A stretch of 64,000 bases of DNA from Patescibacteria group bacterium (GCA_032117075.1 JAUMAA010000003.1:41574-105573); one strand, 5' to 3'; positions 7,375 through 57,231 are shown, numbered from the stretch's first letter. The notes: generated by a model not told the origin, from the sequence alone. Numbers and translations: made by a program.

Positions 7375-7560
7375 GTGAGATACCAGATTTGGTACCAGCC
7401 TAAGGAAGAAGGTTTAATCTTTTTGATTCAATTAATTCTTCAAATTCTAGGGTGGAGTTCATTTCCCAAGAGGAAATTCAGGGGAACCTGGTCCGAATGG
7501 CAAAAGTTCTCCAAAACAAACCGTATTTTGCGGATTTGTAAGGTCACAAAATTGAACTAG
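7375..7560 (+). CDS. Small basic protein (61 aa), GTG start; possibly a leader ORF translationally coupled to 7570-7962
   Basis: AGAGAGG RBS 7 nt before the GTG. Its TAG stop is embedded in the TAGGAGG RBS of the next gene. Confidence 0.3.
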   Translation: MRYQIWYQPKEEGLIFLIQLILQILGWSSFPKRKFRGTWSEWQKFSKTNRILRICKVTKLN

Positions 7561-7569
7561 GAGGTTCCA

Positions 7570-7962: not shown

Positions 7963-7975
7963 TCACTTTGCGAAG

Positions 7976-8006
7976 CGGGACGAGTGCGACAAAAGCACCC
8001 GTCCCG
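7976..8006 (+). terminator. GC-rich hairpin (cgggacgagtgc...gcacccgtcccg); putative terminator
   Basis: Stable inverted repeat after the stop, but the U-tail is weak. Confidence 0.4.
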
Positions 8007-8068
8007 ACAATCTAAATTATTAAAATATTTTCAAAAATACAAAGTTTGGTGATAAAATATAGAAGTTT

Positions 8069-8153
8069 GGGCGAGTGGTGGAATTGGTATACACGCATGC
8101 CTTAGGAGCATGTTCCGCAAGGATTGAGAGTTCGAGTCTCTCCTCGCCCACCA
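8069..8153 (+). tRNA. tRNA-Leu (anticodon UAG), 85 nt with long variable arm, CCA encoded
   Basis: Folded by hand: acceptor GGGCGAG/CTCGCCC, anticodon stem catgc/gcatg with loop cuUAGga, long variable arm, T-arm gagag-TTCGAGT-ctctc, terminal ACCA. Confidence 0.9.
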
Positions 8154-8207
8154 AAAATTATTATCAAATTTCTTAAACAATATTAACTTAAATCAATTTC
8201 TAAGTTC

Positions 8208-8714
8208 ATGAATTTGTTATATAATTACAATATGAATCCTGAAATTTTAATCTTTATTCTACTAATTTTGTGTCTTATTCAGTTAGGAGTATTAATGCTC
8301 TTTTTATCAAAAGGGTTTAATGATTTACATAAAAATGACATAAAACTCTATAATATATTTAAAAATAATATAGAGCCCCAAAATGTAACATTTACTCCAG
8401 AAGTCAAAAATTTAGTAAGTTTGTCAAATGATATATGGAGATTTTCTAAGCATGTAGACAAAAACAATGACAAACTAGTTAATTTATCGGAGAGATTAAT
8501 TAGAGGATTGGATAAATTCGATATAAAAATAACTGATTTTACAGGTCAAAAAATTAGCGAAGATTTAAATGTAAAATCAGAGGTGATAAAAAATGACTCC
8601 AGTCTGGAAGATAACTATGTAATTAGTACAGAGTCACCGGCAATTTTTTATAAAGATAAAATGTATCAGCAGGGATTTGTTTTAATTAATAAAATAAATA
8701 AATCAGAAAGTTAA
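8208..8714 (+). CDS. Membrane-anchored protein; C-terminal half weakly GrpE-like (speculative)
   Basis: N-terminal TM. The C-terminal region (GLDKFDIKITDFTGQKISEDLN ... MYQQGFVLINK) loosely matches the GrpE C-terminal pattern. Its stop is 1 nt before the Hsp70 ATG. Confidence 0.5.
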   Translation: MNLLYNYNMNPEILIFILLILCLIQLGVLMLFLSKGFNDLHKNDIKLYNIFKNNIEPQNVTFTPEVKNLVSLSNDIWRFSKHVDKNNDKLVNLSERLIRGLDKFDIKITDFTGQKISEDLNVKSEVIKNDSSLEDNYVISTESPAIFYKDKMYQQGFVLINKINKSES

Positions 8715-8715
8715 T

Positions 8716-38569: not shown

Positions 38570-39206
38570 AATTAAGATTAATATCATTACATTATTTCCA
38601 AATCTATTTAACGAATTCAAAAGTGTACTCCCATTTAAAAGGGCACTTGAAAAAAATTTAATTGAATTAAATATTATCAATCTCAGAGATTTCGCAATTG
38701 ATGAAAGAGGAACAGTGGATGATAAGCCTTACGGAGGAGGGACAGGGATGATATTAAGAGTAGAACCAATTGTTAAGGCCTTAGAAACAATTGAAGAAAA
38801 AGAAGAAATAATCGTTTTAAATCCCAAAGGACAACTATTTAATCAAAACTTAGCTAAAGAATTTAAAGAAAAAACTTCACTAACTTTTATTTGCGGAAGG
38901 TATGAAGGAATTGATCAAAGAATAATAGACAACTATGCTACAAAGGAAGTCTCAATAGGAGAATATGTTTGCAGTGGTGGTGAAGCTCCAACTATTGTCA
39001 TGTTAGAGGCAATAATAAGATTATTACCTGAAGTTTTAGAAGAAGAAGTTACAAATGATGAATCATTTGAAGATAGTACATTTGAGTACCCTCAATACAC
39101 TAGACCTGAAAATTTTAATGGATTAAAAGTTCCAGATGTTTTAATTTCAGGCAACCACAAAGAAATTGAAAAGTGGAAAAAAGATAATTCGAGAAAATTA
39201 AATTAA
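38562..39206 (+). CDS. trmD: tRNA (guanine37-N1)-methyltransferase TrmD
   Basis: DDKPYGGGTGMIL and the SPOUT-fold core. rpsP-trmD synteny. Confidence 0.9.
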   Translation: MPKIKINIITLFPNLFNEFKSVLPFKRALEKNLIELNIINLRDFAIDERGTVDDKPYGGGTGMILRVEPIVKALETIEEKEEIIVLNPKGQLFNQNLAKEFKEKTSLTFICGRYEGIDQRIIDNYATKEVSIGEYVCSGGEAPTIVMLEAIIRLLPEVLEEEVTNDESFEDSTFEYPQYTRPENFNGLKVPDVLISGNHKEIEKWKKDNSRKLN

Positions 39207-39859
39207 TTTTGAGAAACAGTTTCTTCTAAATATCTATTGATAAAATCAGTAAATTTCATATCATTTAAAATATCATTTATAGGTGCATCTATTGAGGACT
39301 GAACTTTGGTCTTATTAAATACTGTTCTAGCAACAAACGAAACTCTGTAATATTTATTATCTCGATCATCAAATAACTCCAAATCTCTAATATTTATAAT
39401 CTTTCCTTTATTACTATTTAGAGATGTGAGGTAATTTAATGCAGATAGGGGACCAACTGTTCTACCATTAAACCTTACTTCAATAACTCCTTGGTTGCTT
39501 AAATTCTGATCCGCTATATTTTTGTTTTCATCTATCTTATTGAAATTAAATTTCTCGGCTTCTGCTCCTAAATTTGCAACTAATGGAGCAGGGGACTCAT
39601 CGTTAGGAACTAGCTCTACCATCTTTTCTTCGTATCTATTTAAATCATCAGCTTTATCTCTAGCATTTTGCAGGATATTTAATTTAGTTTGATAATTTGT
39701 AATTTGTAAATTTTTACCATCCCTGGTTGAATCTAATTCAGATTTAATATTTAAGTAAGGCATTATAAGTAACAAATTTATTATTGCAATTAAAGTAATA
39801 AAAATTACTGGAAAAATGAAGTATTTTAAATAAATAGTGAAGTCTTTTTTATCTGACAT
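39203..39859 (-). CDS. Type IV pilus assembly protein PilO-like (bitopic)
   Basis: N-terminal TM plus periplasmic domain; position after PilM/PilN. Confidence 0.5.
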   Translation of the reverse strand: MSDKKDFTIYLKYFIFPVIFITLIAIINLLLIMPYLNIKSELDSTRDGKNLQITNYQTKLNILQNARDKADDLNRYEEKMVELVPNDESPAPLVANLGAEAEKFNFNKIDENKNIADQNLSNQGVIEVRFNGRTVGPLSALNYLTSLNSNKGKIINIRDLELFDDRDNKYYRVSFVARTVFNKTKVQSSIDAPINDILNDMKFTDFINRYLEETVSQN

Positions 39860-40418
39860 TTAAGAGTCCTTTATTATATTTTACAGTAACAACATATTCT
39901 TTGGAAACCTCATTAACATCCTCAGGCACACCAGAGTTGCTAAATAAGTTTTCAATATTTGAGTCATTTACTTTAGAAGCTTTTAAGTTATCAACAAATC
40001 TTTTAAATGCAGTTGAGTCAGCGGTAACTCTTACCGAAACAAGGTCTTTATCGGTATCTACCGTAATAGTTTTAATAACCACACCTCCAGAAATATTTCG
40101 TTCATAAATATCTCTCATAACTTTTTCGTATAAAACCTTATCTCCTTCAAATTTTTGAGCAGCATCAAATCTAGCTTTAATATCTCTTAACTGAATTTCT
40201 TCCTTAGAATATTCCGCAATGTCTTTTCTCAAGGAAGTTAGTTTTGAATCTAGACTATCTTTTTCATTTTTCAATGGCTGTAAAAGAGTATTAAAATAGT
40301 AGCCCAAACTCCCGACCGCAAGCATTGTTAATATCAAAAAAATATTCGCAATCTTGGTATAAAGCTGAATTTTTTGCTCTAATTTCTCTTCTGATGTTAG
40401 TAAATTTATTTCACTCAT
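39849..40418 (-). CDS. Type IV pilus assembly protein PilN-like (bitopic, coiled coil)
   Basis: Short N-terminus, TM, coiled coil; directly downstream of pilM. Confidence 0.55.
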   Translation of the reverse strand: MSEINLLTSEEKLEQKIQLYTKIANIFLILTMLAVGSLGYYFNTLLQPLKNEKDSLDSKLTSLRKDIAEYSKEEIQLRDIKARFDAAQKFEGDKVLYEKVMRDIYERNISGGVVIKTITVDTDKDLVSVRVTADSTAFKRFVDNLKASKVNDSNIENLFSNSGVPEDVNEVSKEYVVTVKYNKGLLNVR

Positions 40419-41440
40419 AAAATCTCAATTCCTGATAGACCTATTGGTGCAGATAGAGAGGAGGATAATTCTTTTAAACTTCCTTCATACTTACTTAAAT
40501 CAGAATTGACTTTAACTTTATTAAAAGGATTAAATACCTCTACAGGTATATTTAAATTTTTCTGCAAGTAATCCTCAAGACCAGGTAATTTAGCCATTCC
40601 CCCTGTTAGATAAATTTTAGAAATATTCATGTTTTTATTCTTATCCATAAAATAAATTACTGACCTCTTAATATCAAGTATATATGAATCTATTAAAGGT
40701 TTTAAGAAATTAAAAATCTTTCCCTCCGCGACTTGAGGATTTAGACCGTAAGCCTTTTTATAATTCTCAGCTTGGATATTTGTTAGATTTAAATTCTGAA
40801 TTAAAGCTTTATTTAAGGAATTAGATCCTATTGAGATAGTTTTAATAAATCTTGGAACTCTTTTATAAGAAACATGTAAAGTAGAGAACTGGTACCCAAA
40901 ATCAAGAATCATAACAGCATCTTTACCATCTTTAATATCTATAATTCTAGATAAGGAAATTGTTTTTGCTTCAAATACTTTAGGGGTTAGGCCTGCTTTT
41001 TTAATTAAATCAACATATCTTTCGATTCTTTCTTTTTTAGCTGCCACAATTAAAATTTCAACATTAGTAGAATCTTTTTGATCAATAATTTTGTAATCAT
41101 AAGTTAAATTAGCAATATTCTCGGGAAAAATCTCAGCTGCTTGGAGATTAATATAGTTTCGGATTTCTTTATCACTCATCTTAGGAATGACTTTTACATT
41201 CAAATAAACATCTGTCTCGGGTAACGATAAAGAAACTTCATTAGTAGGAAAATCAAGTTCTTTAAAAAATTCCTTTAACTTGAAAGAATATAAATTTATA
41301 GCTTCTTCGTTATTGAAATCCAATTTTAATTTTTCTGATTCATATATTGCAAAATTTAAAATAGTAGGGGACTTTGAAACCAAACCAACCTCAACACATT
41401 TGATGCTATGATTTCCTAAATCTATTCCAATATGAGTCAT
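40415..41440 (-). CDS. pilM: Type IV pilus assembly ATPase-like protein PilM (actin fold)
   Basis: N-terminal IGIDLGNHSIKCVEV and the actin-like ATPase fold length. Confidence 0.8.
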   Translation of the reverse strand: MTHIGIDLGNHSIKCVEVGLVSKSPTILNFAIYESEKLKLDFNNEEAINLYSFKLKEFFKELDFPTNEVSLSLPETDVYLNVKVIPKMSDKEIRNYINLQAAEIFPENIANLTYDYKIIDQKDSTNVEILIVAAKKERIERYVDLIKKAGLTPKVFEAKTISLSRIIDIKDGKDAVMILDFGYQFSTLHVSYKRVPRFIKTISIGSNSLNKALIQNLNLTNIQAENYKKAYGLNPQVAEGKIFNFLKPLIDSYILDIKRSVIYFMDKNKNMNISKIYLTGGMAKLPGLEDYLQKNLNIPVEVFNPFNKVKVNSDLSKYEGSLKELSSSLSAPIGLSGIEIL

Positions 41441-41464: not shown

Positions 41465-41947
41465 TTATTGTTGATATGTTTTATTCAAAGTAATTCTTTT
41501 TTCAAATTTAACTTCTGTTTTTAATCTTGAATTATTAAAATCTTTAGAAATACCAAAGGAAATATAAACAACTTGTGGGTTAGTTCCAGTTACTGTAAGA
41601 ACAAAAGGTGCTGATTTACCTATCTCTGAATCAGTTAATTGAATATTATCTAGTACCAACATGCTACTTGATTCTATAAAGGAAAGAGTAAAAGTTTTAG
41701 TTGGGTAAACAATCGATAACTTTTTACTTACAGAATTGTATGAAACAGAGTCAGAATCTTGAATTAATTTAGTAAGTTTAACATTTAGAAATGAGTACTC
41801 CTCTTCAAGAGAAATTTTATTTTGAATTTTAGTTGAGGTGGATGTTAGGCTAATAATCATATCTGAAGAAATTACGGATACGACTGTAATTAGTAAAACT
41901 ACTACCAAGAGTTCGACTAGAGTAAAACCCTTATTATTTAATCTCAC
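41465..41947 (-). CDS. Prepilin-type minor pilin/pseudopilin
   Basis: NKGFTLVELLVVVLLI class III signal peptide (G-F-T-L-x-E). Confidence 0.7.
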   Translation of the reverse strand: MRLNNKGFTLVELLVVVLLITVVSVISSDMIISLTSTSTKIQNKISLEEEYSFLNVKLTKLIQDSDSVSYNSVSKKLSIVYPTKTFTLSFIESSSMLVLDNIQLTDSEIGKSAPFVLTVTGTNPQVVYISFGISKDFNNSRLKTEVKFEKRITLNKTYQQ

Positions 41948-42414
41948 TGTCTAGTCCTCCAATTTGTAAAAATAGTATCAGTAGAAGATGAGAAGAGAAT
42001 TTTATTGGTTTCATAATAACTAACTACTTGAATATTTATTTCCACTATAGGTAAAGATGAGAGTGGTTCTGTGGTTACCTTAAAGCAAGTAAGTCCTTTT
42101 TGAACTGGAGAAGGGCAACTTGTAAAATTATTAGTCGATGGATTAGGAAAATAACAATAAGTATTAGTACATCTACTATTTAATTCTGTCGAAAAAGAAT
42201 CAAACCCAGTATCTTTGATAACTCTTAATTTTTCTAAAACATTTGATGAGTTTTTAGTTGCTTCTTGTCTCTCTGTAACATTAAGTGAATTTTGAATATT
42301 GAAAGTGGTGAGAGAAAGGAGTGCAACCACTAATACAACTGCAAATGCTATAGCTAAGACAGCTTCAACTAATCCTATTCCTTTATTATTTACTTTGAGC
42401 ATAGATTCTTCCAA
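41944..42414 (-). CDS. Prepilin-type minor pilin (PilV-like)
   Basis: NNKGIGLVEAVLAIAF prepilin N-terminus. Confidence 0.6.
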   Translation of the reverse strand: MEESMLKVNNKGIGLVEAVLAIAFAVVLVVALLSLTTFNIQNSLNVTERQEATKNSSNVLEKLRVIKDTGFDSFSTELNSRCTNTYCYFPNPSTNNFTSCPSPVQKGLTCFKVTTEPLSSLPIVEINIQVVSYYETNKILFSSSTDTIFTNWRTRQ

Positions 42415-42820
42415 ATTTATTAATAATTACATTAAATGATGGGAAATTGATTGTTACAGAAATCAAATTATTATTTTGATCAACTAAGTTACCATATCTA
42501 TCTATAAAAAAATTTGAGGTACTTGATCCTGAAATAAAGTCATAGTTTGTTTCTTTACATTCATTTAACTCAACAGAGCAAGTAGTTACTTTCAAACCGG
42601 CAAAGTTCATAGAATATTTGTTATCCGTTGTTAAGGCAAGGTTTTGAGTTGTTCTAAATGTAGAAATAAAATTTTTAACTTCTTCGTTTTCAGCTTGTTT
42701 TCTCTGATAATTTAAAATAGAAGGAATCGAAAGACCTGCAATTACAATTATCAATACAATCACAACAAGAAGTTCGATAAATGTAAAACCAGAATTTGAA
42801 TTAAGCTTCTTTATCTGCAT
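42386..42820 (-). CDS. Prepilin-type minor pilin
   Basis: NSGFTFIELLVVIVLI. Confidence 0.7.
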   Translation of the reverse strand: MQIKKLNSNSGFTFIELLVVIVLIIVIAGLSIPSILNYQRKQAENEEVKNFISTFRTTQNLALTTDNKYSMNFAGLKVTTCSVELNECKETNYDFISGSSTSNFFIDRYGNLVDQNNNLISVTINFPSFNVIINKFGRIYAQSK

Positions 42821-43335
42821 TAAGGACCTGTAACAGGAGCCAGACCTCCACTAACCTTAAATACATTACTTTTAACTAAATCGCAACTAGAAAACAGCCC
42901 TGAGGTAGGATCCATACTTTCTTTAGGTATCTCTAGGATAAATTCTTGACCTCTGGGGATTCCAAAATTACTACTTTCTTTAATTGAATAAACCTCATAA
43001 TAACTTTGAGTTATATTAGTTACATAAATGTAATCGCAGGAAGTATTTTCAGATGGATCGTATAAGGAAACTTTAACATTAAAAGAACTTAGCTCCGAGA
43101 TAGCTGAAGGGTATCTTTTGTATTCAGAGTAGTAGAGTTCTAAAGCAGAAGCAATCTGTGAAAGAGAAGATACTCTTAGAGCGTCCCTTTGTTCCCTTTG
43201 TTTTTCGGCTGGATTAAAGATGACAATAGAAGTAGCTGCAAGTATCACCATTATTCCAACTACAATCATTAACTCTAGCAAAGTAAAACCTTTATTACTT
43301 ACATTAAATTTTTTGGTATATGAGCAGTTTTTCAT
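42820..43335 (-). CDS. Prepilin-type pilin
   Basis: NKGFTLLELMIVVGIMVILA. Confidence 0.7.
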   Translation of the reverse strand: MKNCSYTKKFNVSNKGFTLLELMIVVGIMVILAATSIVIFNPAEKQREQRDALRVSSLSQIASALELYYSEYKRYPSAISELSSFNVKVSLYDPSENTSCDYIYVTNITQSYYEVYSIKESSNFGIPRGQEFILEIPKESMDPTSGLFSSCDLVKSNVFKVSGGLAPVTGP

Positions 43336-43348: not shown

Positions 43349-44218
43349 TTAATTATCTAAAAATAGAGCATAATCATAAATAGATGATGGTGTATCCAGA
43401 TATTTAAATGCCTCAACTCTTCTGGAGGTTTTATCAACTCCGTCAGTAAATACTCCTTTTGCAGTAATTTTGTACCCTTGAATTACATTTCTTACATTTG
43501 TACTGGTTGAAAAAACTTTAAGAGTACTTACTTCGTTGGAAAGAGGTTGAAATCTTATCATGTAAGAATTTGTAACTCTAAAGTAACCAGAGGCACAATT
43601 TCCTGTAATAGGAGAGATATTTTTATAAGAACTACCATCAAATAAATAGTTTTCAAGTAAATATTCGTTAGTTTTAACTCTGTTTACATTTGTAGTAGTT
43701 AGTGAATCTTCTACAGGTTCAAAAATTTGAATACTTGGGTTTGATGTAACAATACCAAGTCTATATGATGTATTTGGAGGGGACACTTCCAATTTAATAC
43801 ATGCAGTTTGAGGTAAAAGTACTCCGGCTCCTGAAAACTCGGTGGTTAAAAAAGTGACCGTCTCAGAAGGTTTAATTTTTTCGTAAACCATACCGGTACT
43901 TGAATTTGCATTTAATTTATCAACAGTAATGATTGCGGAAGTTCCGTTGTTTACAAAATCAATAGCTTCACTAAATTCCGTATTATCTACTAATAGATCT
44001 AAATCGGAGTCACTCTTTAATAAAAATTTTTCAAGGCCGCCTTCGGCGGCCGCTGTTACTTTTTGTAATGAATCCAAATTTCCAGTTCTTTTAAGGGATT
44101 CTGTACTTCTTGAGGTAATTCCTAAACCTACACCCAGTGTTACTGCCATTGCTACTACAACAATTAAGAGAACCTGACCTTTATTATCTAAATTGTTTGA
44201 CATATCTTTATTAATCAT
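43349..44218 (-). CDS. Pilus-associated protein with hydrophobic N-terminus (PilX-like?)
   Basis: NKGQVLLIVVVAMAVTLGVGLG hydrophobic helix lacking the Glu5; Thr/Ser/Val-rich. Confidence 0.4.
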   Translation of the reverse strand: MINKDMSNNLDNKGQVLLIVVVAMAVTLGVGLGITSRSTESLKRTGNLDSLQKVTAAAEGGLEKFLLKSDSDLDLLVDNTEFSEAIDFVNNGTSAIITVDKLNANSSTGMVYEKIKPSETVTFLTTEFSGAGVLLPQTACIKLEVSPPNTSYRLGIVTSNPSIQIFEPVEDSLTTTNVNRVKTNEYLLENYLFDGSSYKNISPITGNCASGYFRVTNSYMIRFQPLSNEVSTLKVFSTSTNVRNVIQGYKITAKGVFTDGVDKTSRRVEAFKYLDTPSSIYDYALFLDN

Positions 44219-44229
44219 ACTAGTAACTT

Positions 44230-47200
44230 TTAATCATTAAAATACTTAAATATTGTTTTGCTTCTTGTAACATTAAACATCTTATAAGACCTCAGGTCTT
44301 GTTGTAAATAAATTAATACATCTGGGTTTTGAGAAATATTTATAAAGGATCTATCTTCATTTTGAGTACTTAAATTTCCAATTAATTTAAAGTCTCCATA
44401 GATACCACCTTTTAAGTGATAAACTGCTCTATTGCCACAAATAAGAGAATAGTTCTCTAAATCAGAACAATCCACATGGAAAACAATTCTCTCTTTGATA
44501 TTTGATTTATCAGTTGAAACAAAGTAAACATTTTCTAAGTTGTTATAAATATTTAAATCTGTAAGATCAAAGTATAGTTGTTTATTTTTTGCAACATAAA
44601 TTATTGTTGGAGTTGCAGATACTGGAACACTGTTAAAAGCATCAATTTTATTGAAATTATTTACAGAGCCCGATGGTTTCGTGTCTGTTAGTAGTAAAGA
44701 AGTAACTTGTGTTTCAGGTAAGGCATAGTCAACTAAATTTTCAGTATAACTAAAATTAAATGCCTTAGTCAGCTTATCAAAATAAGGAATATTAAAATAA
44801 GAAGGACCCATCAAAGTATTACTTAATCTAAAATTTTTACCGCCCTGAGCAGAACCTGAAACATAAACACCTTCATACCTTTTATCCACATCAGAAGTAG
44901 TATAAAACTTTACATCACTTGATCTTTTTATCATTGTATTTCCGTTAACTCTAAAATTTAAGTAAGAGGTAGGAGGCTGAACATTTCCGGAGGTTAAATA
45001 AATATCTAAAGATTGAGGAACTAAATTATAACTATTAACTACATTTGATTTATAAAACAAATCCAAACATCCATTATTGATTGTTCCGGTAAAGTAGTTA
45101 TTAGAAATAGAGCTGGTTGATGTAGTTGTTGAATTTGTAAATCCAATTCTACTTACTTTAGTATCAGCAGTATTGGTAAAACAAATTTTATATTTCACAT
45201 TATCAATCAAAGTATTACCTGATTTACTTAGGTCATGATCCCAGAAAAAATTAGAAAAGGTATCTTTATGCAGTGTGAATGAAGATTCACCGTCGGGTGC
45301 GGTAAGATTTCTTTGTTGAGGAGTAACATTTTTGAAAGTTTTGGTTACAACCATTTTGGCATCGGCAAAAGGATCCTGATCTTGATTATCTAAATAAGTA
45401 AATATATTTATGAAACTTTGAAGTGTGTAATACCTATTAGGATCTATACCTAAAGATGGGTAATTATAGACAGTTCCGTTGTAATTAAAACTTATTTTAT
45501 AAAAATATTTCTCAAAATTAGGTGACTTAACATTTAAAAAATTAAAAGATTTTCTATCAGACAATAAATTTGCAGCTAAAGTTGTCGGAAGTGGGGCAGA
45601 GGTAATGCCGTCATAAAGAGTAAGATACATTTTAGTTCCAGCGGGAACATTTACTATACCTGAGGGGCAGCTTAAATTAATAGCCGAATTAAATGTGTAA
45701 TTTAGGTTATAAGTAGAAGTTGTTGTATCAATAGCAGAGGGTACTATTCCTTTATTTATAGAATTTGGATCTGTATTTATAAGAGTTAAACCACCCGCAA
45801 CTAGATTGTAATTAGGCACACACTCTGGGGTAGTTGGAGGGACTTTTGAAGTTAGAACATAGTTTCTAGAAACAAAAATTGCATAATCATTATCTGTATT
45901 TGCATCATCGTTATTGTAATATCTAAATGTTAATGGAGCATTATTTCCGGGCCCAAGAGAAGGGAATTTGTAACCTCCGTTTGTTTCATTTAATTCAAAG
46001 AGTCTGTGTGTTCCAGTGGGTGAATTAAATTTTTCAGCCCTAAACATTCTAGACTTTGCACTTAAGTTATTCTTAGAATCTACAAAATTAGGAGCAATTA
46101 AAATATCGACATCATTTCCAGAATTTACACTAAAGCTAACATTCTTCAAGTAACTCAGAGAAACATTTCGTAGTGCAATAAATTTTGTTTGAGTTGGCTG
46201 ATTCCCCATGTACCCACTAAATTCAAACCTCTTAAATACTAAATTGCTGTTGGCATACTGAAGGGTGAAGTAGTATTTATCTGAGACATAATCAGCCAAG
46301 ACACCTGATCCTACACCTAATTTTGGTACAACCTCGAAGGTTAGAAGGGAGGGTACCGGTTCAAATTTATAGTTTTCTATTCTATACTTGTAGTACCAGT
46401 CACTAGAACCTGGGAAATAGATTCTTACTAGATCAACTCTATTTTTAAGGTTATAGGCTGCTAACGGAGAATCGTAACCCCCAAATACCCAATTTAAGGA
46501 ACTCTGATTCTGAAGTGTAGGATTGAACCCGTAATAGACTCTATTATAAAAGTCTTTGTAGTCCCCTTTGTTATCTTTAAATATCCCATAATTTGGAAAT
46601 TTTATAGCTGATGCGTTACTCCACTCATGTCTATTATCTCCACTTGAGCTAACCCTTAAAACCATATTAATACCGTATTCAAGTTCTGAAAAAGGAGCGG
46701 CACAGTTATTTTTCGACTTCCCAATACAATATGACTTAGCATCCCTAGTGGCACTTCCTCCAGAACTTGGACCCTGGTTTACAAATATATTAGGGTTTAA
46801 AGATAATCTAGGTCCAGAAAAAGAAGAAGGAGCTACATTGAAGGACATCCTGGTAATGTTTGGATAGTTGTAGTACTGACTGTAACCTTCTTTATTCAAA
46901 GTAACACATTGATACCTCCTATCCCAGCATGATTCAGTAGCTGAAAGACGACAATTACTTTCTAGAGGTACACCAAGAGTTTGAGCCCTTCTTAAGCATT
47001 CAACATTTCCCCTATATGTAGTTCCCCAACCACCTTGCGGATCCTTTCTTTCATAACATCTATTCTCCAACAGATCTTCAAGACCTCCGCCTCCAAAAAT
47101 AACGGTATTATTTTTTTTGGCTATAGAAGAAGGAAACCAGCTAGACTTACATCCAGCTGTATAGCCAACATTTCCAAATGTTTTAAAAGACCTAGTGATA

Positions 47201-47781
47201 TTAACGACACTTTGAGGGTTTGTATTTAAAAGAATTTCATAAAAACCACCATAATAAACAAGTAATGGGACCCCACTAATATTTTCTAAGACAGGATTAC
47301 CATAATATTCAATTCCTGAACTATTTATTTGGACATTAGGCACTGCTACAGTTGATGTAACTGTAGTGGAAACCGCATAACTAGTAGTATAGGTATTATT
47401 AAAAGAGGTGTTAGATGAAAAATCAGAAACAGAAGACACTCCGAAAGTTGGTAATCTATTTACAGTTACAATATTTGTAATCTGTTGATCAACAGTTTTA
47501 ATAGAGTAGGTGGTTTTAGTACAAAAGAAATCCATAAATGGCTGACTATCGTCACACTCAGGTCTAATAACATCTTTCATAAGATAGTTAGTGACTTTAT
47601 AAACATCTTCTGTTTCAGTAGTAGCGGCTAATACTTGAGACCAATCATCTTCCTGGTTAGTGTTTTGATTTGAAATTAAATTAGGGTAGAAGTAGTATCC
47701 AGTAAAAATTAAAACGGATAACATAAATAATTTTATGATCGTCCAATTTGAAATTTTACTAGGAAGTGTAATTCTACCCAT
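44230..47781 (-). CDS. Very large (1183 aa) N/S/T/Y-rich secreted/surface protein encoded within the T4P locus (PilY1-like tip adhesin role possible)
   Basis: Single N-terminal TM/signal anchor, beta-rich low-complexity composition, sits between the pilD and minor pilin genes. Confidence 0.55.
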   Translation of the reverse strand: MGRITLPSKISNWTIIKLFMLSVLIFTGYYFYPNLISNQNTNQEDDWSQVLAATTETEDVYKVTNYLMKDVIRPECDDSQPFMDFFCTKTTYSIKTVDQQITNIVTVNRLPTFGVSSVSDFSSNTSFNNTYTTSYAVSTTVTSTVAVPNVQINSSGIEYYGNPVLENISGVPLLVYYGGFYEILLNTNPQSVVNITRSFKTFGNVGYTAGCKSSWFPSSIAKKNNTVIFGGGGLEDLLENRCYERKDPQGGWGTTYRGNVECLRRAQTLGVPLESNCRLSATESCWDRRYQCVTLNKEGYSQYYNYPNITRMSFNVAPSSFSGPRLSLNPNIFVNQGPSSGGSATRDAKSYCIGKSKNNCAAPFSELEYGINMVLRVSSSGDNRHEWSNASAIKFPNYGIFKDNKGDYKDFYNRVYYGFNPTLQNQSSLNWVFGGYDSPLAAYNLKNRVDLVRIYFPGSSDWYYKYRIENYKFEPVPSLLTFEVVPKLGVGSGVLADYVSDKYYFTLQYANSNLVFKRFEFSGYMGNQPTQTKFIALRNVSLSYLKNVSFSVNSGNDVDILIAPNFVDSKNNLSAKSRMFRAEKFNSPTGTHRLFELNETNGGYKFPSLGPGNNAPLTFRYYNNDDANTDNDYAIFVSRNYVLTSKVPPTTPECVPNYNLVAGGLTLINTDPNSINKGIVPSAIDTTTSTYNLNYTFNSAINLSCPSGIVNVPAGTKMYLTLYDGITSAPLPTTLAANLLSDRKSFNFLNVKSPNFEKYFYKISFNYNGTVYNYPSLGIDPNRYYTLQSFINIFTYLDNQDQDPFADAKMVVTKTFKNVTPQQRNLTAPDGESSFTLHKDTFSNFFWDHDLSKSGNTLIDNVKYKICFTNTADTKVSRIGFTNSTTTSTSSISNNYFTGTINNGCLDLFYKSNVVNSYNLVPQSLDIYLTSGNVQPPTSYLNFRVNGNTMIKRSSDVKFYTTSDVDKRYEGVYVSGSAQGGKNFRLSNTLMGPSYFNIPYFDKLTKAFNFSYTENLVDYALPETQVTSLLLTDTKPSGSVNNFNKIDAFNSVPVSATPTIIYVAKNKQLYFDLTDLNIYNNLENVYFVSTDKSNIKERIVFHVDCSDLENYSLICGNRAVYHLKGGIYGDFKLIGNLSTQNEDRSFINISQNPDVLIYLQQDLRSYKMFNVTRSKTIFKYFND

Positions 47782-47829
47782 ACTATTATTAAAACATATT
47801 TTATGAAAATAATTTTATAAAAACTAATT

Positions 47830-48588
47830 TTAAAAAGAAAAAATTGAAAAGATAAAGGAAAAAAGAGCACCTATCACCAAAAAAGGACCAAAAGGAATTT
47901 GGGATTTTAGTTTTTTTAATTTGAAAATTAAAACTAAAATCCCAAACACACCCCCTAAAATAAATCCAAAATAAAGTGCAGAAATGTTTGCTGGGTAACC
48001 AACTACAATGGAGATAAAACATGCTAGTTTTAAATCCCCACCACCCATACCACCTTTAGATAAAAGTATGATTAGATAAAAAATTGTAAAAATAATAAAA
48101 ACCGATAAAAATTCGGTAAATAAATTATCAAGTGATAAATTTTGCAATATTAAACTTCTATATAAAATTGAAAAAATACTTCCAAAAACAATTATTTCAA
48201 AAGGAATCTCATAAAATTTAAAATCAGTAAAACTAATAATTAAAAATAATGAAAAAATAATTAACAGATATATAAGAAAATTTATTTCAAAATTTTGAAT
48301 CACGGTAATGTAGTATGCAAAAACAAAACTAACACCAGTTAGAATTTCAGAAACAGGGTAGAGTAGTGATAATTTATGACCGCAATAAGAACATCTTCCT
48401 TTTTGGAGTATAAAACTAATAATTGGAATTAGGTTGATAGCCTCAAGCTGATGTCCGCAATGATCACATTTGGATCTGTCTGTAAGAAAGTTTTCCTTAC
48501 GATAAAGGCGGTCGGAAACAACATTAAGGAATGATCCAAGGAATATTCCTAAGAAAAATAATGTTGTTCCGACCGCCCAATCAAACAT
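47830..48588 (-). CDS. pilD: Prepilin peptidase (A24 family)
   Basis: N-terminal tetra-Cys (CDHCGHQL..CSYCGHKL) plus a polytopic membrane domain with GGMGGGDLKL. Confidence 0.8.
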   Translation of the reverse strand: MFDWAVGTTLFFLGIFLGSFLNVVSDRLYRKENFLTDRSKCDHCGHQLEAINLIPIISFILQKGRCSYCGHKLSLLYPVSEILTGVSFVFAYYITVIQNFEINFLIYLLIIFSLFLIISFTDFKFYEIPFEIIVFGSIFSILYRSLILQNLSLDNLFTEFLSVFIIFTIFYLIILLSKGGMGGGDLKLACFISIVVGYPANISALYFGFILGGVFGILVLIFKLKKLKSQIPFGPFLVIGALFSFIFSIFSF

Positions 48589-48600: not shown

Positions 48601-49167
48601 CTATTGACCAAACTTATCTGTTCCGCAAGCAGAAAGATCTGTACCAACCTCATAAGCTGTTACATCATCACCACCATCATTTTGCATTTTTGGTGCATCA
48701 TTATCTAGCATAGAATTTATTTCAAATCCTGTAGCAGAAACACAAAAAACATACCTAGCTGTAGCTGTTTTAAGACCTTCAGATGTGGTGTAAGTTACAC
48801 TAGCTGTACCATTCTTAGGGTCTAAAGGTAATACTGCTAAATTTGAAAACTTATAAGGAACTGGTGCGACAGCTGTTGGAACAAACTTTACCCAACCGGT
48901 ACCATCTACTGCCTGGTTATTAGGATTTGCTGTATCCGCTGAATTATACTTTCCAGGTGTTAAAGTAATAAATCCTTGAGCTTGCTCTCTTAATATTCCA
49001 TCTTGGATACTTCTTAAGTCAGAAACTCTCTTGGTATCATTTCCCCTTCCAGTCAATCTTCCTACATCGATATTAGTAAACACAATTGCTACTAATATTC
49101 CAAGAATTACCATGACAATTAGTAATTCTATAAGTGTAAAACCTTTATTGTTGTTGATTTTACTCAT
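48601..49167 (-). CDS. pilA: Type IV major pilin (PilA-like)
   Basis: NNKGFTLIELLIVMVILGILVAIVF class III signal and pilin helix. Confidence 0.75.
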   Translation of the reverse strand: MSKINNNKGFTLIELLIVMVILGILVAIVFTNIDVGRLTGRGNDTKRVSDLRSIQDGILREQAQGFITLTPGKYNSADTANPNNQAVDGTGWVKFVPTAVAPVPYKFSNLAVLPLDPKNGTASVTYTTSEGLKTATARYVFCVSATGFEINSMLDNDAPKMQNDGGDDVTAYEVGTDLSACGTDKFGQ

Positions 49168-49169: not shown

Positions 49170-50381
49170 TTATAATCCTCCTACGGTGCCGATAATACTA
49201 TAGATTGGGGTAATCACCGATAAAATTATTCCCCCAACACTAACTCCTAATACTATTAATATAATAGGTTCAATTGCTGCTGACAATCCTTTGATTGCAT
49301 AACTGGATTCATTTGCATAATTGTCTGCAACTTTATCTAGTAGTTCATCTACTTTACCAGTTTCTTCTCCGATTTTAATCATAGAAGGAATAATTGGATC
49401 AAAAAATTTATTGGATCTAAAATAATCAGATAAGTTATTTCCTTTTTCAATATATTTTGAAGCCTCTAAAGAGGCAGTGATAATAATAATGTTAGAAGAA
49501 ACTCTTGCAGAGATTATCAATGCTTCTGTAATCTGAACTCCAGAACCAATTAGCAAAGATAAAATTCTCATATAACTTGAAAGTTCTGTTTGTTTTAAAA
49601 CTTTTCCAATAACTGGAATTTTGAAAAGTATTGTTGACATTATTGATTTTCCTTCAGGAGAAATCAAAAATAATCTTAAAAGAATTCCTCCTGCAATAAT
49701 GACAATTAGAAAAACATACCAGTAATTGATTAACACATTTGATAAATTAATTAAAAATTGAGTATGCCAAGGAAGTTCTTTATCTAATGATTTAAAAATT
49801 TCAGTAAGTTTAGGAACTACATAAACAATTAAAACTAAAATAACAATAATCATTACAACTAAAATTATGGCAGGGTAAATCAAAGCTGCTTTAAGTCTAG
49901 ATTGCAAATCCCTGTTTGATTCATATGTCTCTGCAATTCTTGCAAGAATGCTATCTAACTTACCAGATGATTCTCCTGCTTTTATTAAAGCAGTATAAGA
50001 AGAGTCAAAAATTGCAGGAAACCTAGACATGGCACCAGAAAGGGAAGTACCGGCATCAACATCTTTACTTATTTCAGTTAGTATTTTTTTAAAGTTGTTA
50101 TTAGTGGTTTGGTCAATACAAATCAATAAAGATTTGGTGATAGTTAAACCTGAATTAATCATGGTAGAAAATTCCCTAGAGAATTCAGTAACTTCTTCAA
50201 AACTAACACCTCCAATAGAGGAGAGGGTATCCAAAAAAGATGCATGTTTTTCAGCAATTGAAACAACTATTAAGGATTGAGATTTGAGAATAGTAAGGGC
50301 ATCTTGTTGTGATTTTGCTTCAACTGTACCTGTTTTAGAGTTTCCAAGGGAATCTTTAGCTGAAAAATCATATATCGGCAT
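49170..50381 (-). CDS. pilC: Type IV pilus platform protein PilC (GspF family)
   Basis: Two T2SSF-like repeats with three TM segments; about 400 aa. Confidence 0.85.
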   Translation of the reverse strand: MPIYDFSAKDSLGNSKTGTVEAKSQQDALTILKSQSLIVVSIAEKHASFLDTLSSIGGVSFEEVTEFSREFSTMINSGLTITKSLLICIDQTTNNNFKKILTEISKDVDAGTSLSGAMSRFPAIFDSSYTALIKAGESSGKLDSILARIAETYESNRDLQSRLKAALIYPAIILVVMIIVILVLIVYVVPKLTEIFKSLDKELPWHTQFLINLSNVLINYWYVFLIVIIAGGILLRLFLISPEGKSIMSTILFKIPVIGKVLKQTELSSYMRILSLLIGSGVQITEALIISARVSSNIIIITASLEASKYIEKGNNLSDYFRSNKFFDPIIPSMIKIGEETGKVDELLDKVADNYANESSYAIKGLSAAIEPIILIVLGVSVGGIILSVITPIYSIIGTVGGL

Positions 50382-50383: not shown

Positions 50384-51445
50384 TTATTTTTTAATAAGTC
50401 TTTGTAAATTCTCAGGATTTAAAGAATACTTAATAGCAGTATTCAAAGCTACTTTTCCTGTATTTACAAGCTCAGCTAAAGAATTATCCATACTTAACAT
50501 TCCTACATTTGCTGATGTAGCAATAACATTATCAATTGAGAAAATCTTTCCTTCTCTAATAAGACTTCTAGATGCAGAGGTTGCAATTAAAACTTCAGTT
50601 GCAGGGACTAAGTCGTTAGTTACTGTTTCAATTAATCTTTGAGAAACAACCATTTCAAGAGTTAAAGATAATTGATTTCTAATTTGCTCTTGCATTGTTT
50701 GAGGACAGGAAGACAAAATTCTGTCAATTGTTTGAGCTGCCGAATTAGTATGAAGAGTAGAGAATACTAAATGCCCGGTCTCTGCCAAGTTCATCACAGC
50801 TAGCATTGAATCAAAATCGTTAATTTCACCAACCATTATAATGTTAGGGTCAACTCTAGTAATTGATTTTAAAGAAGAAGTCCAGTTAACAGTATCTAAA
50901 GATAACTCTATTTGCTGCACAAAACTTTTTTTTGATTCAAATAAAAATTCAATTGGATCCTCAATTGTAACAATATGTTCAGATCTTGTTTGGTTTATCT
51001 TTTCCATAATACCTGCAATAGTAGTTGATTTTCCCTGACCTGTTGGTCCCGTAACTAAAATCAGACCCTGTTTAAGTTCAATAGCATGATTTAAAACAGG
51101 AGGAAGATTTAGTTTTTCAAGTTCTGGAACTTTGAATGGAATACTCCTTAATGCAACAGCAGGATAACCTTTTTGATTAAAAACTGTTACCCTAAACCGG
51201 ATATTATTTCCAAAATTTACTGATAGATAAAGTTCTTTATTTATTTCAAAAATTTTTCTCTGATCTTGTGTCAAAACTTGAGAAAGAAAATACTCAATAT
51301 CATCAACACTTAAAGGTTGATAGCTTTCTTTAATTAATAATTGTTTTTTAATTCTAAAAATTGGAGGAAGACCTACAGACAAATGTAAGTCTGAAGCACC
51401 ATCTGATATAACTGAATTTACTAACTCTTTTAAATTAATTGCCAT
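50384..51445 (-). CDS. pilT: Twitching motility/retraction ATPase PilT
   Basis: Walker A GPTGQGKSTT, about 350 aa PilT-size secretion ATPase. Confidence 0.8.
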   Translation of the reverse strand: MAINLKELVNSVISDGASDLHLSVGLPPIFRIKKQLLIKESYQPLSVDDIEYFLSQVLTQDQRKIFEINKELYLSVNFGNNIRFRVTVFNQKGYPAVALRSIPFKVPELEKLNLPPVLNHAIELKQGLILVTGPTGQGKSTTIAGIMEKINQTRSEHIVTIEDPIEFLFESKKSFVQQIELSLDTVNWTSSLKSITRVDPNIIMVGEINDFDSMLAVMNLAETGHLVFSTLHTNSAAQTIDRILSSCPQTMQEQIRNQLSLTLEMVVSQRLIETVTNDLVPATEVLIATSASRSLIREGKIFSIDNVIATSANVGMLSMDNSLAELVNTGKVALNTAIKYSLNPENLQRLIKK

Positions 51446-51511: not shown

Positions 51512-53305
51512 CTAACTGAGTGCTACCCTCATAACTTCAGAAATATTTGTTTGACCTTCAACTGATTTTAAAAAACCATCCTGCATTAAAGTTACCATTC
51601 CCTGAGAAATAGCAATCTCTTCAATCTCTTGTGCAGATTTTCTTTCGATAGTGGCCTTAGAAATTTCAGGACTCATTGGAAAAAATTCATAAATTCCAAT
51701 TCTTCCTTGATAACCAATATTGTTACACTTATCACAACCAACTGGTCTGAATAATTTAAAGTCACCTTTTTCGATTAACTGGATGCTATCAAATATTTTT
51801 TTATCTTTACTTTCTAAAATATGATTATCTTGAAGTTTCTTTAAGGAATCTTTAACCAAAAGTTTAATATCCTCAGGAGGATCGTATTCTTGTTTACAAT
51901 TAACACAAAGTTTTCTAACTAATCTTTGAGCTAACACTCCGTTACAAGTAGAGGAGAGAAGGTAATTCTCAACATTCATATCTAAAAGTCTCGGTATAGC
52001 ACCAGTTGCGGAATTTGTGTGTAAAGTTGATAGAACCAAGTGACCTGTTAGAGCCGCTTGTATGGCGAGACCTGCGGTCTCGCCATCTCTAATTTCTCCA
52101 ACCATTATTATATTAGGATCTTGCCTTAAAAAACTTCTCAAAGCAGAAGCAAAAGTAAGCCCTGCTTTCACATTTACTTGAACTTGATTTACACCTGGAA
52201 CTCTAATTTCAACCGGATCTTCAATAGTTACAATATTAACTCTAGAGGTATTTAACTTCTGTAATGCCGAGGCTAAAGTCACAGTTTTACCAGAACCTGT
52301 TGGTCCGGTTACTAAAATTATTCCAGTTGGTTTAAGTAGTGCCTCTTCAAACCTTCTTAAGGTCAAGCCTCTCATACCTAAGTCTTGAAAAGAATAAACT
52401 GTAGATTGTTCTTTAAGTAACCTAATCACTACCTTCTCACCAAAAACAGTTGGAAGAGTAGAGACTCTTAAATCGGTAAAAGTATTTCCAACTTGGACTT
52501 TAAATCTTCCATCCTGAGGAATTCTTTTTTCATCAATTTTTAATCCAGATAAAACCTTAATTCTCGCAACTATTGAATCACTCATTTCTTTTGGAAAAGT
52601 CCTTCTTTCCTCTAAAACTCCGTCGATTCTATATCTTAGTCTTACTTTTTCTTCCGAGGGTTCTAAGTGAATATCTGAGGCACCTAGCTTAACTGCTGTT
52701 TCTACAATCATACCGACAATTCTCGCCACAGGAGCATCTTTTAAAACTTCATCATCTTTGGTTAATGTACCGCTACCATCAATCCTTAATGCTTGGGTAG
52801 TTGCGGAAATCTCTTCCATTGCTTTAGTAACATCTTCACCCAAATTCTTAGATCTAGCATCTTCTAAAACATCTTCAATATCCCTTTTGGTAGCTACATA
52901 TGGAACAACTTTTAAATTAGTTTTCTTTTCTAAAAATTCTATAATTTCTAAATTCATCGGATCAGACATAGCGACTTGAAGAATTTCGGACATTTGATTA
53001 AAAGGTGCTAATTCATATTTTTTGGCTAAATCTAATGGGACAAGTTCAAAAAGTTTAGGACTAATCTTCTTTCCTTTGAGAACAACATATTCCATTCCAT
53101 ATACTTGGGAGTAGGCGAGAGCATATTCTTCGCCAGAAACTAAATTTGATTCTTTCAAAACCTCACGAGTAGATTTACCTGTATTGGTGCTTTCTATTCT
53201 CAAAGCATCATATTGCTGTTGATTTATTTTTCCAGCAACAAGTAAAACATCTTCAATAGTCTTGAAATTAGTATTTTGATTTGTACTATAATTCAAATCA
53301 GGCAT
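51512..53305 (-). CDS. pilB: Type IV pilus assembly ATPase PilB (GspE family)
   Basis: N-terminal T2SSE_N-like domains, Walker A GPTGSGKT, tetra-Cys (CVNCK...CDKCNNIGYQG) zinc motif. Confidence 0.85.
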   Translation of the reverse strand: MPDLNYSTNQNTNFKTIEDVLLVAGKINQQQYDALRIESTNTGKSTREVLKESNLVSGEEYALAYSQVYGMEYVVLKGKKISPKLFELVPLDLAKKYELAPFNQMSEILQVAMSDPMNLEIIEFLEKKTNLKVVPYVATKRDIEDVLEDARSKNLGEDVTKAMEEISATTQALRIDGSGTLTKDDEVLKDAPVARIVGMIVETAVKLGASDIHLEPSEEKVRLRYRIDGVLEERRTFPKEMSDSIVARIKVLSGLKIDEKRIPQDGRFKVQVGNTFTDLRVSTLPTVFGEKVVIRLLKEQSTVYSFQDLGMRGLTLRRFEEALLKPTGIILVTGPTGSGKTVTLASALQKLNTSRVNIVTIEDPVEIRVPGVNQVQVNVKAGLTFASALRSFLRQDPNIIMVGEIRDGETAGLAIQAALTGHLVLSTLHTNSATGAIPRLLDMNVENYLLSSTCNGVLAQRLVRKLCVNCKQEYDPPEDIKLLVKDSLKKLQDNHILESKDKKIFDSIQLIEKGDFKLFRPVGCDKCNNIGYQGRIGIYEFFPMSPEISKATIERKSAQEIEEIAISQGMVTLMQDGFLKSVEGQTNISEVMRVALS

Positions 53306-56028: not shown

Positions 56029-57231
56029 ATGCCCAGGATATTTTTATACTTATTATTAATTTTAATAGCCCTTGGCATGCTTGGGTTTAGTTATCAAAAT
56101 GAACTTAAAAATTATTACCTTCTTTATTCAAATCAAATCTCAAACGAGGAATTAACCAAATTTAATCAAAAAAAGATTTTTATTAATTTTCCAAATAAAA
56201 GTCATCAATATAGTCTAGAAGAGATAGGTATCTCATTTAACAATAAAAAAGATAGGCAGATTGATGAAAATAAATTTAATTCTTTCAGAACAAATTTAGA
56301 AAAAGAACTTCAGTATCTAACCCAAAACCCTAATATTAATCTAGAAAAAAATGAATTTTATATTCTTGGAATAGATAGCAAAATTTTTCTTGATGAAGAA
56401 AAGTTTCTAAATGAATTAAATTTTAATAATCTTTTACAAAATAATGAGATTAGAATTTCTCCAAAATTTAGAGAGTCTTTTTCATTAAAACAAAATATTG
56501 ATGCTAACCAAAAACTTATTAATAAAATGACAAATAACTCCCTAACCATAAAAATAGGGAGGCAAATATTCATCTTAGATTCTCAGAAATTACAAACATT
56601 TCTTACAAAATATCAGGATCAAAATAATAAAGAGATTATTATTGTAGAAAAAAAGAAAATTGAAGATTATTTATCTAATTTAAAAAAAACACAAAAACTG
56701 CCTGCAGAATTTAATTTAAGTGAGTCTTCTCAAAAACTTACTTCTCATTTACTATTTAGATTAACAGAGGAAGTTCATACTAAAACTTTAGTACTTCCCA
56801 TCACCAGTTCATACACCTTAAATCCAGATTTACATAAAAAATTTATTGAAGTAAATAAATCAAATCAGAGAGCATACCTTTTTGAAAATGGAAATTTAAT
56901 TAAAGAATATGTTATTTCTACTGGGATTACCTGGGAAACTCCGACAGGTAGTTTTAAAGTTTTAAATAAAGTTCCAATGACTATTTCTTACTCATATATC
57001 TGGTACATGCCTTGGTACTTACCAATAGGAACTATCAACGGTCCATTCTACTTTGGGTTTCATGAGGTACCTTATCAAGTAAGTTATAACGGAATGATTT
57101 ATTCTAGGGATCCTGAGACTATAGGAAGTCCTGCGACAGGGGGGTGTATTCAACTCCTTAAAGGACAAGCTAAAGAAGTTTACGACTGGGCTGAAGTGGG
57201 AATGCCTGTTTATATAACTGAAAATAAGTAG
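56029..57231 (+). CDS. L,D-transpeptidase (YkuD domain) protein with N-terminal TM
   Basis: C-terminal YkuD catalytic motif HE...SPATGGCIQL. Confidence 0.75.
   Translation: MPRIFLYLLLILIALGMLGFSYQNELKNYYLLYSNQISNEELTKFNQKKIFINFPNKSHQYSLEEIGISFNNKKDRQIDENKFNSFRTNLEKELQYLTQNPNINLEKNEFYILGIDSKIFLDEEKFLNELNFNNLLQNNEIRISPKFRESFSLKQNIDANQKLINKMTNNSLTIKIGRQIFILDSQKLQTFLTKYQDQNNKEIIIVEKKKIEDYLSNLKKTQKLPAEFNLSESSQKLTSHLLFRLTEEVHTKTLVLPITSSYTLNPDLHKKFIEVNKSNQRAYLFENGNLIKEYVISTGITWETPTGSFKVLNKVPMTISYSYIWYMPWYLPIGTINGPFYFGFHEVPYQVSYNGMIYSRDPETIGSPATGGCIQLLKGQAKEVYDWAEVGMPVYITENK

Follow-up and report, generated by a model that had tools for sequence, protein, structure and literature searches.

A lineage-restricted, probably pilus-linked surface protein with an exchangeable head, encoded in a type IV pilus operon of a Patescibacteria group bacterium

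A 64,000-nucleotide (nt) stretch of DNA from a Patescibacteria group bacterium (GCA_032117075.1, JAUMAA010000003.1:41574-105573), referred to as the window, was analysed around the gene at 44230-47781 on the minus strand. This gene, called BIG, is embedded in a type IV pilus operon and lies directly upstream of a gene for a 289-residue protein, called p289. The BIG product is likely to lie outside the cytoplasm, to be linked to the pilus and to bear a variable head for binding. For the fuller proposal, that BIG is an extracytoplasmic non-pilin pilus adhesin of WWE3/Katanobacteria-like bacteria within the Candidate Phyla Radiation (CPR) acting by the whole mechanism described below, the chances are put at about even. 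BIG most likely works like PilY1 from outside the PilY1 family, with a presumed tip location and ligand. The new elements are the minute size of the family, its quantified divergence, a domain map, a head swap and a conserved tail beside a PilX-like gene.

The initial annotation had placed an open reading frame (ORF) of 1183 amino acids (aa) at these coordinates, between pilD and the minor-pilin genes, and both statements hold. The frame runs from an ATG to a stop codon. At the G+C content of the window (~31%) a stop codon is expected about every 13 codons, and the probability of a chance open frame of this length was calculated to be ~1e-42. Since full-length homologues of similar size also exist, BIG is a real gene, and its context is robust. 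Its neighbours, like BIG itself, are read from the minus strand, and together they make a compact operon for a type IV pilus. Spacers of 48 nt (47782-47829, upstream of BIG) and 11 nt (44219-44229, upstream of the PilX/GspK-like p289) separate BIG from pilD and p289, respectively. Both spacers consist of nearly all A/T and contain no recognisable Shine-Dalgarno sequence.

The domain map is a prediction. An AlphaFold model from a 7-sequence alignment (mean predicted local distance difference test, pLDDT, 37.7) was unusable. The model used was obtained with a 33-sequence alignment including distant members (mean pLDDT 71.2, predicted template-modelling score 0.55). It is almost all beta, as the initial annotation had expected: a helix (residues 12-37) is followed by a low-confidence linker (38-54, pLDDT <50) and then by independent beta domains. 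The pilin lollipop fold, with a long alpha1 on a beta-sheet, was not seen in the model, in which the helix has 26 residues. The features of BIG are as follows.

44230-47781, minus: BIG, whole gene; 1183 aa and stop, ATG start (ORF list and translation)
47671-47781, minus: residues 1-37, basic N-region (R3, K9, K17) and hydrophobic helix (12-37 in the model)
47617-47637, minus: residues 49-55 (QVLAATT), motif [E/D]-V-L-[A/Q]-[A/S], conserved in an otherwise variable, low-confidence linker
47311-47610, minus: residues 58-157, small beta domain (C76-C87 pair; strands 58-111 and 130-136) and hypervariable S/T-rich linker
45832-47304, minus: residues ~160-650, head; predicted seven-bladed beta-propeller with a Cys-rich insert at ~242-292
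44992-45789, minus: residues ~665-930, stalk; immunoglobulin (Ig)-like beta-sandwich domains (pLDDT 80-93, the best-modelled region)
44293-44955, minus: residues 943-1163, conserved C-terminal module; family signature and sole region common to distant members
44233-44292, minus: residues 1164-1183 (RSYKMFNVTRSKTIFKYFND), basic C-terminal tail, isoelectric point (pI) 10.2; pLDDT ~35, modelled as disordered

Approximately 29 strands were modelled between residues 164 and 646, and judging from this strand count the propeller would sit in the variable N-terminal half of the protein. The head (residues 160-650) has a pI of 9.1. PLL/CV39L lectins and receptor ectodomains are among the best fold matches of the propeller, and no DNA-binding fold stands out; Foldseek also returned a Micromonospora sialidase (propeller, Ig and carbohydrate-binding module; 2ber, 1w8o) and acylaminoacyl peptidase. 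Identities to BIG in these fold matches are just 7-10% and the target-normalised template-modelling (TM) scores are low. A viral fold search with BIG gave only low-TM matches to generic propellers and tail proteins. The stalk matched multi-Ig proteins, for example Gram-positive shaft pilins and complement C5. In the C-terminal module the invariant columns of the family signature are NGN (946-948), R1098, C1105 and C1115. The part that aligns with distant members (residues ~932-1183) is 34% identical to them (E 3e-22 and 4e-23), and residues 943-1163 are proposed to form a docking module.

The composition of BIG was compared with that of the other proteins of the window. The combined share of N, S, T and Y is 36% in BIG and 23% in the other long ORFs, which bears out the described N/S/T/Y-rich body. 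The description as a low-complexity protein was abandoned: the mean Shannon entropy over 40 residues is 3.68 (background 3.66), and no internal repeats were found by self-BLAST. Just two short S/T-rich stretches, residues ~100-160 and ~860-900, fall below the 5th percentile of the background; the entropy minimum is the linker after the small beta domain.

Divergence was measured as identity to the window in four loci carrying orthologous operons (L001, L002, L004 and L005, in this order).

PilB: 94, 92, 74 and 73%
PilT: 94, 90, 72 and 71%
PilC: 88, 80, 64 and 63%
PilM: 87, 84, 59 and 57%
PilD: 77, 66, 50 and 53%
Major pilin: 62, 44, 37 and 36%
p289: 53, 55, 42 and 39%
Minor pilins: 43-60% (L001 and L002), 32-38% (L004 and L005)
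BIG: 46, 46, 17 and 18%

Of the operon genes, BIG diverges fastest. In loci L009 and L010 the identities are 76 and 70% for PilB and 25% in both cases for BIG. Among the close homologues the most variable blocks of BIG are residues 101-150 (18% identity), 301-400 (31-35%) and 451-500 (33%), and the most conserved block is formed by the last 33 residues (1151-1183, 70%). None of the 16 cysteines varies among the seven close homologues, which points to eight probable disulfides and an extracytoplasmic location. Such disulfides would fit the enrichment of CPR genomes in MdbA-like disulfide oxidoreductases (PMC6744442).

A head swap was found by comparing the window gene with its orthologue P0012 (locus L015, 9001-12438) and with L004 7728-10172. 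The L015 organism is closely related to that of the window (PilB 94%, PilT 95%, PilC 86% identity). Residues 615-1145 of P0012, covering the stalk and C-terminal module, are 56% identical to BIG 654-1183. Residues 40-615 are unrelated to the BIG head (8% in a forced global alignment). Their identity to heads from the 814-818-aa class, a clade with a PilB identity of only 74%, is 47-53%, and a value of 49% was obtained for the L015 head against that of the distant clade. The mosaic breakpoint, at about BIG residue 654, coincides with the boundary between the propeller and the Ig domains. With its foreign head on a window-type stalk and C-terminal module, P0012 indicates that, at the level of sequence, the family is modular, an exchangeable head of ~600 residues being carried on a stalk and C-terminal module that track the lineage. 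Such head exchange is what one typically sees in receptor-binding proteins, not in parts of a machine.

The N-terminus (residues 1-37) appears to be a Sec-type signal peptide or signal anchor rather than a prepilin leader. Its basic-then-hydrophobic start is common to all N-terminally complete relatives, and its single hydrophobic segment agrees with the one N-terminal anchor of the initial annotation, which had likewise reported no prepilin signal. A prepilin G/FxxxE motif was not found in BIG, and PF07963/TIGR02532, which match four of the five neighbouring prepilin-type genes, do not match it; G-F/M-x-x-x-E was absent from the N-termini of 19 family members. A cryptic prepilin leader was considered and rejected, as a Gly-1/Glu5 pattern is missing and conservation of the leader residues stops at the close subfamily. 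The motif [E/D]-V-L-[A/Q]-[A/S] is present in 17 of the 19 N-terminally complete members, at residues 31-57 and 7-25 aa beyond the hydrophobic segment; besides BIG, the loci that have it include L001, L002, L004, L005 and L009-L011, and V50 and L51 of BIG are at least 90% conserved in 23 sequences. With an aliphatic residue at -3 and a small one at -1, the motif resembles a site of signal-peptidase type, although its distance from the membrane segment is unusually large; it is regarded as a candidate processing site. No SLH, LysM, LPXTG or other wall-anchoring domain was found in BIG with Pfam and NCBIfam, and the C-terminus (...FKYFND) carries no sorting signal.

The C-terminal tail is the second conserved element of the protein. 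Nearly all C-terminally complete members end in ...ENPD(I/L)L..L..(D/E)LRSKKy..V(T/S)s.k(v/i)nLKY, with 0-3 residues beyond it. As the tail is conserved, strictly C-terminal and unstructured in the monomer model, it points to a fold that would be induced by a partner; the argument is that a conserved C-terminal element must have a conserved partner. PilC/PilY1 ends in 12 residues that monomer models leave disordered; they act as a plug, which attaches to PilK through beta-strand augmentation and is necessary and sufficient for tip localisation (10.64898/2026.09.18.752573). By analogy, the BIG tail is a candidate plug that would add a beta-strand to the PilX-like minor pilin p289, which is proposed as the docking partner.

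The gap between BIG and p289 is 11-39 nt in the family loci. The N-terminus of p289 (NKG|QVLLIVVV) is prepilin-like without Glu5, as in GspK and PilX, and is conserved across all homologues. p289 matches the GspK equivalog weakly (E 0.059, N-terminus alone). It has 89 homologous clusters, one distant cluster being labelled PilX by the Joint Genome Institute (JGI), and a search of PDB sequences gave only a chance match (androgen receptor, E 0.3). An h-K-Y-L-[D/N] strand-like element was observed near the C-terminus in both families: p289 ends (43349-43420, minus) in ...VEAFKYLDTPSSIYDYALFLDN and BIG (44233-44262, minus) in ...KTIFKYFND, with KYLN or KYLD in relatives. This common element could reflect chance or strand pairing of BIG with p289.

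Distant p289 homologues have an unrelated large protein directly upstream in two of three loci, namely L012 (739 aa, Sec-type signal-like N-terminus) and L014 (792 aa). Over ~300 conserved residues at the C-terminus the L012 and L014 proteins resemble each other (E 8e-28), while their N-termini diverge; in L013 a PilX-like gene and pilMNO are present and the large protein is absent. Homology between the C-terminal modules of BIG and of the L012/L014 proteins was not established (hhalign probability 0.8%, E 0.068; hmmsearch E 0.022), and the pairing of a large protein with a PilX-like one in these loci is therefore an architectural parallel, analogous rather than homologous. The L012 pair (6779-9894, 2-nt gap) lies outside a pilus operon, near Fic/RhuM and radical-SAM genes, and may be an orphan tip cassette for a pilus encoded elsewhere.

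The size of the family was determined by several searches. BIG had no real match in Pfam, NCBIfam, PHROGs or PDB sequences, the last giving only chance matches (cholesterol oxidase, E 1.6). A Pfam match to Beta_helix_2 (E 0.0096, 16 bits where the cut-off is 30) occurred in one of 33 members and was rejected. A word-indexed search returned an identical protein, six full-length homologues of 44-54% identity (the nearest at 54%) and one 814-aa protein matching just the final 250 residues; among the matches listed, the same search with a 23-sequence profile gave the same 7 close homologues. When 1.84 billion cluster representatives were searched exhaustively with a profile, 28 BIG-family proteins were obtained at E<=1e-3, the distant ones aligning to profile positions ~918-1173 alone. 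Complete members have 660-1280 aa. A pattern scan of genome contigs with the BIG alignment gave no relatives. A contig scan anchored on PilC gave one metagenome-assembled genome (MAG) of candidate division WWE3 and three irrelevant proteobacterial loci. This MAG is the nearest named genome (PilC 64% identical to the window); an 843-aa protein occupies the BIG slot in it and shares only the C-terminal module with BIG. With 28 representatives in 1.84 billion and WWE3 as the nearest named genome, the family is, as far as these sequences go, limited to a narrow CPR lineage, as the initial annotation had guessed.

In all nine family members with readable flanks (L001, L002/L003, L004, L005, L009, L010, L011 and L015) the gene is directly upstream of a p289 homologue. 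The remaining pilus operon is seen in eight of the nine, including lineages with a PilB identity of 70-76%; L011 is a short contig with only the BIG and p289 homologues. The order in the family loci read is pilD, BIG, p289, four minor pilins and pilMNO, with one BIG copy per operon in each. Where the flanks are long enough, the operon is bordered by gyrB/holB on one side and by trmD/rpsP/rnc/nusB on the other. Since the same housekeeping genes flank the loci, this is a vertically inherited core operon and not an island. In L004 (6965-7681, minus) and L005 (12505-13221, minus) pilD and BIG are separated by an extra, oppositely oriented gene of 238 aa that matches nothing in Pfam; it belongs to the 814/843-aa subclade, and neither the window nor its close relatives have it. 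The other operon genes of the window are as follows.

51512-53305, minus: pilB (translation; orthologous loci)
50384-51445, minus: pilT (translation; orthologous loci)
49170-50381, minus: pilC (translation; orthologous loci)
48601-49167, minus: major pilin (Pfam)
47830-48588, minus: pilD (Pfam A24 peptidase domains, E 1e-28)
43349-44218, minus: p289, 289-aa PilX/GspK-like minor (pseudo)pilin (weak N-terminal GspK match)
42820-43335, 42386-42820, 41944-42414 and 41465-41947, minus: four prepilin-type minor pilin genes (N_methyl/TIGR02532 matches)
40415-41440, minus: pilM (PilM_2, E 4e-40)
39849-40418, minus: pilN-like (position and synteny only)
39203-39859, minus: pilO-like (position and synteny only)

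The minor pilin genes gave weak matches to ComGD, ComGE/PilV, ComGF and GspG/H, all under the curated cut-offs. Pfam labels on syntenic orthologues of the genes upstream of BIG are T2SSE, T2SSF and Peptidase_A24. Some operon genes overlap or abut (for example at 42386-42414 and 41944-41947).

BIG was compared with known tip proteins. Like PilC/PilY1, it is a large (~1000-1200 aa) non-pilin encoded with minor pilins, and its basic-then-hydrophobic N-terminus, with no clear cleavage site beside the hydrophobic segment, may be of the Sec type as in PilC/PilY1; it also has a variable N-terminal and a conserved C-terminal part, only ~932-1183 aligning with distant members, and, according to the model, contains a beta-propeller. 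Its tail is likewise disordered in monomer models, and its gene adjoins a PilK/PilX/GspK-like one, being contiguous with this gene and the four prepilin genes in the window and all readable family loci. It differs from PilC/PilY1 in its Ig-like stalk and in belonging to an organism without an outer membrane or secretin. No PF05567 (PilY1 domain) or IPR008707 signal was found in any of 33 family members. As the propeller is in addition placed in the variable part, BIG is not a member of the PilY1 family, and the PilY1-like C-terminal domain that the initial annotation had asked structure prediction to look for gave way to an N-terminal propeller and an Ig stalk. PilY1-type functions in CPR are not a wholly new idea, since in a metatranscriptomic study some transcripts of ultrasmall prokaryotes were labelled 'pilY1', on the strength of annotation alone (PMC9938205).

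In TM7x (Nanosynbacter lyticus), PilX2 has a seven-bladed propeller with PLL/CV39L lectin matches, is needed for efficient host binding and is a proposed adhesin (PMC11623550). By description and fold, the level at which the comparison was made, PilX1 and PilX2 resemble BIG as the largest proteins of a CPR pilin locus without a predicted PilD-type signal, and the PilX2 propeller is PLL/CV39L-like, as that of BIG. However, they are lollipop pilin domains with a grafted C-terminal module (PMC11623550), whereas BIG is a separate polypeptide beside p289 with no pilin domain in the model. Streptococcus sanguinis, which has no outer membrane, presents ligand-binding modules on the modular minor pilins PilB and PilC (PMC8179133). 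These are prepilins proper, with the class III signal peptide and the pilin fold, both of which BIG lacks; it is therefore not a modular pilin. Phage receptor-binding proteins and mosaic adhesins likewise combine a conserved attachment module, exchanged distal domains and the fastest evolution in their cluster, but BIG belongs to a chromosomal, vertically inherited core operon and its viral fold matches are weak and generic. BIG represents a protein family that is new and unannotated, and its role is probably that of tip adhesin in a CPR pilus.

The proposed mechanism would be as follows. BIG would be exported by Sec, would fold oxidatively outside the cell with eight probable disulfides, as its conserved cysteines suggest, and might be freed from its N-terminal segment at the candidate signal [E/D]-V-L-[A/Q]-[A/S]. 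The C-terminal module and tail would dock onto the minor-pilin priming/tip complex, most likely onto p289, a step suggested by conservation, gene adjacency and the PilC/PilY1 precedent. Pilus extension would then present the head away from the cell, where it would bind a surface structure of the host or prey. The ligand would probably be a glycan, which the lectin-like propeller makes plausible. Retraction driven by PilT would draw the cells together, and rapid divergence and head swapping would retune the binding specificity. Export, docking, function and ligand are what we infer here from genes and predicted folds. The most specific version, an undescribed non-PilY1 family of CPR pilus adhesins with a C-terminal plug into a PilX-like pilin and an exchangeable head that sets host range, is held only tentatively, as somewhat less likely than not.

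Several points weigh against this mechanism. The proposed association with the pilus is drawn from gene linkage and predictions. The domain order is unlike that of PilY1, the propeller being the variable head and not the conserved C-terminal domain, and the propeller matches are generic and uninformative on the ligand. The C-terminal module is moderately modelled, with pLDDT <50 at residues 976-1043. Finally, no obvious signal-peptidase I (AXA-type) site adjoins the hydrophobic segment, so that the protein could remain membrane-anchored; an anchored BIG is hard to reconcile with riding on a pilus tip unless it is cleaved elsewhere, e.g. at VL[A/Q][A/S].

The helix at 12-37 and the lack of an adjoining AXA-type site suit a component of the machine in the cell body, in which BIG, held by its uncleaved helix, would form an envelope-spanning conduit, gate or cork where there is no PilQ secretin, its C-terminal module contacting the priming complex only before extension. 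The single BIG copy per operon in all loci read, the absence of PilQ from CPR (PMC6744442) and the description of PilY1 itself as pre-loaded like a cork in the machine (10.64898/2026.09.18.752573) are in line with this. However, the machine parts of the operon are conserved (PilM 84-87%, PilC 80-88%) where BIG is at 46%, the swap of a whole 600-residue head between close relatives fits a ligand-binding surface, and L013 has a PilX-like gene and pilMNO without a large protein; the explanation is unlikely, and is still the strongest of the alternatives. A pilus-independent surface protein, an adhesin or surface-layer (S-layer)-like coat merely co-transcribed with the pilus genes, would also be N/S/T-rich and all-beta with an N-terminal anchor; neither a pilin nor a PilY1 domain was detected in BIG, and the L012 pair lies outside any pilus operon. 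It is quite improbable, since the slot between pilD and the minor pilins is kept over deep divergence at 11-39 nt from the PilX-like gene, the L012 protein too is paired with a PilX-like pseudopilin, Pfam and NCBIfam show neither SLH nor any other domain for binding the wall, and a tail so conserved calls for a partner that is conserved too. Sixteen conserved cysteines would, moreover, be unusual for an S-layer protein.

Two further explanations concern the ligand of the head. With the geometry of the proposed adhesin, BIG might be a tip-located DNA receptor for natural competence, similar to Thermus ComZ, the ligand being extracellular DNA. CPR pili are widely proposed to take up DNA (PMC6744442; PMC9938205) and the head is basic (pI 9.1), but an invariant ligand would not lead one to expect the fastest divergence in the operon and a head swap, and the leading fold matches, lectins and receptor ectodomains among them, point to no DNA-binding fold in particular. 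We rate it slightly below the pilus-independent protein. Least probable is an enzyme of propeller type, secreted or on the surface, which would remodel the envelope of the host, for instance as a sialidase-like glycoside hydrolase. The sialidase (2ber, 1w8o) and acylaminoacyl peptidase matches suggest it; their 7-10% identities and low target-normalised TM-scores do not favour it, comparison of all 33 members with Pfam and NCBIfam gave no enzyme family, and the head is dispensable to the family, being replaced in L015 and in the 814-aa class.

The pilus adhesin thus stays the best available reading of BIG. Of the original idea of a pilus-tip adhesin or host-attachment factor, the pilus connection is backed by operon linkage, extracytoplasmic features, fast divergence, a swapped lectin-like head and a PilX-like neighbour, while the tip location and host binding are what we infer; low complexity and the PilY1-like C-terminal domain were dropped from it. 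In the loci read, relatives always have the gene in their pilus operon, and no homology to an unrelated enzyme family was found.

Other genes of the window were recorded. At 8716-11226 (plus) an 836-aa protein carries an Hsp70/MreB-like ATPase in residues 8-365 only (HSP70, E 7e-80, profile 2-372 of 599) and ~470 further residues without a Pfam match; it is not a canonical DnaK. The ORF that follows it (11228-12655, plus) encodes 475 aa and likewise matched nothing in Pfam. A class A penicillin-binding protein (29128-31785, minus; transglycosylase and transpeptidase) has a C-terminal bacterial Ig domain, Big_7, and together with a YkuD L,D-transpeptidase (56029-57231) it indicates a capacity for peptidoglycan synthesis and cross-linking in a small genome.

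To our knowledge, host recognition in CPR/Patescibacteria is largely unknown and experimental work has been limited to Saccharibacteria. BIG is a concrete, testable candidate recognition molecule for an uncultivated lineage, and head swaps between close relatives are a genomic marker of changes in specificity. If the tail docks onto a PilX-like protein, tip proteins may be findable in poorly annotated pilus operons, the large proteins of L012 and L014 being examples. Type IVa pili of monoderms are said to lack PilC/PilY1 and to rely on modular pilins (10.64898/2026.09.18.752573); if the proposal is true, BIG would go against that view, presentation of a non-pilin by C-terminal docking would not be limited to diderm PilC/PilY1 systems, and BIG would be a host-range determinant of WWE3/Katanobacteria.

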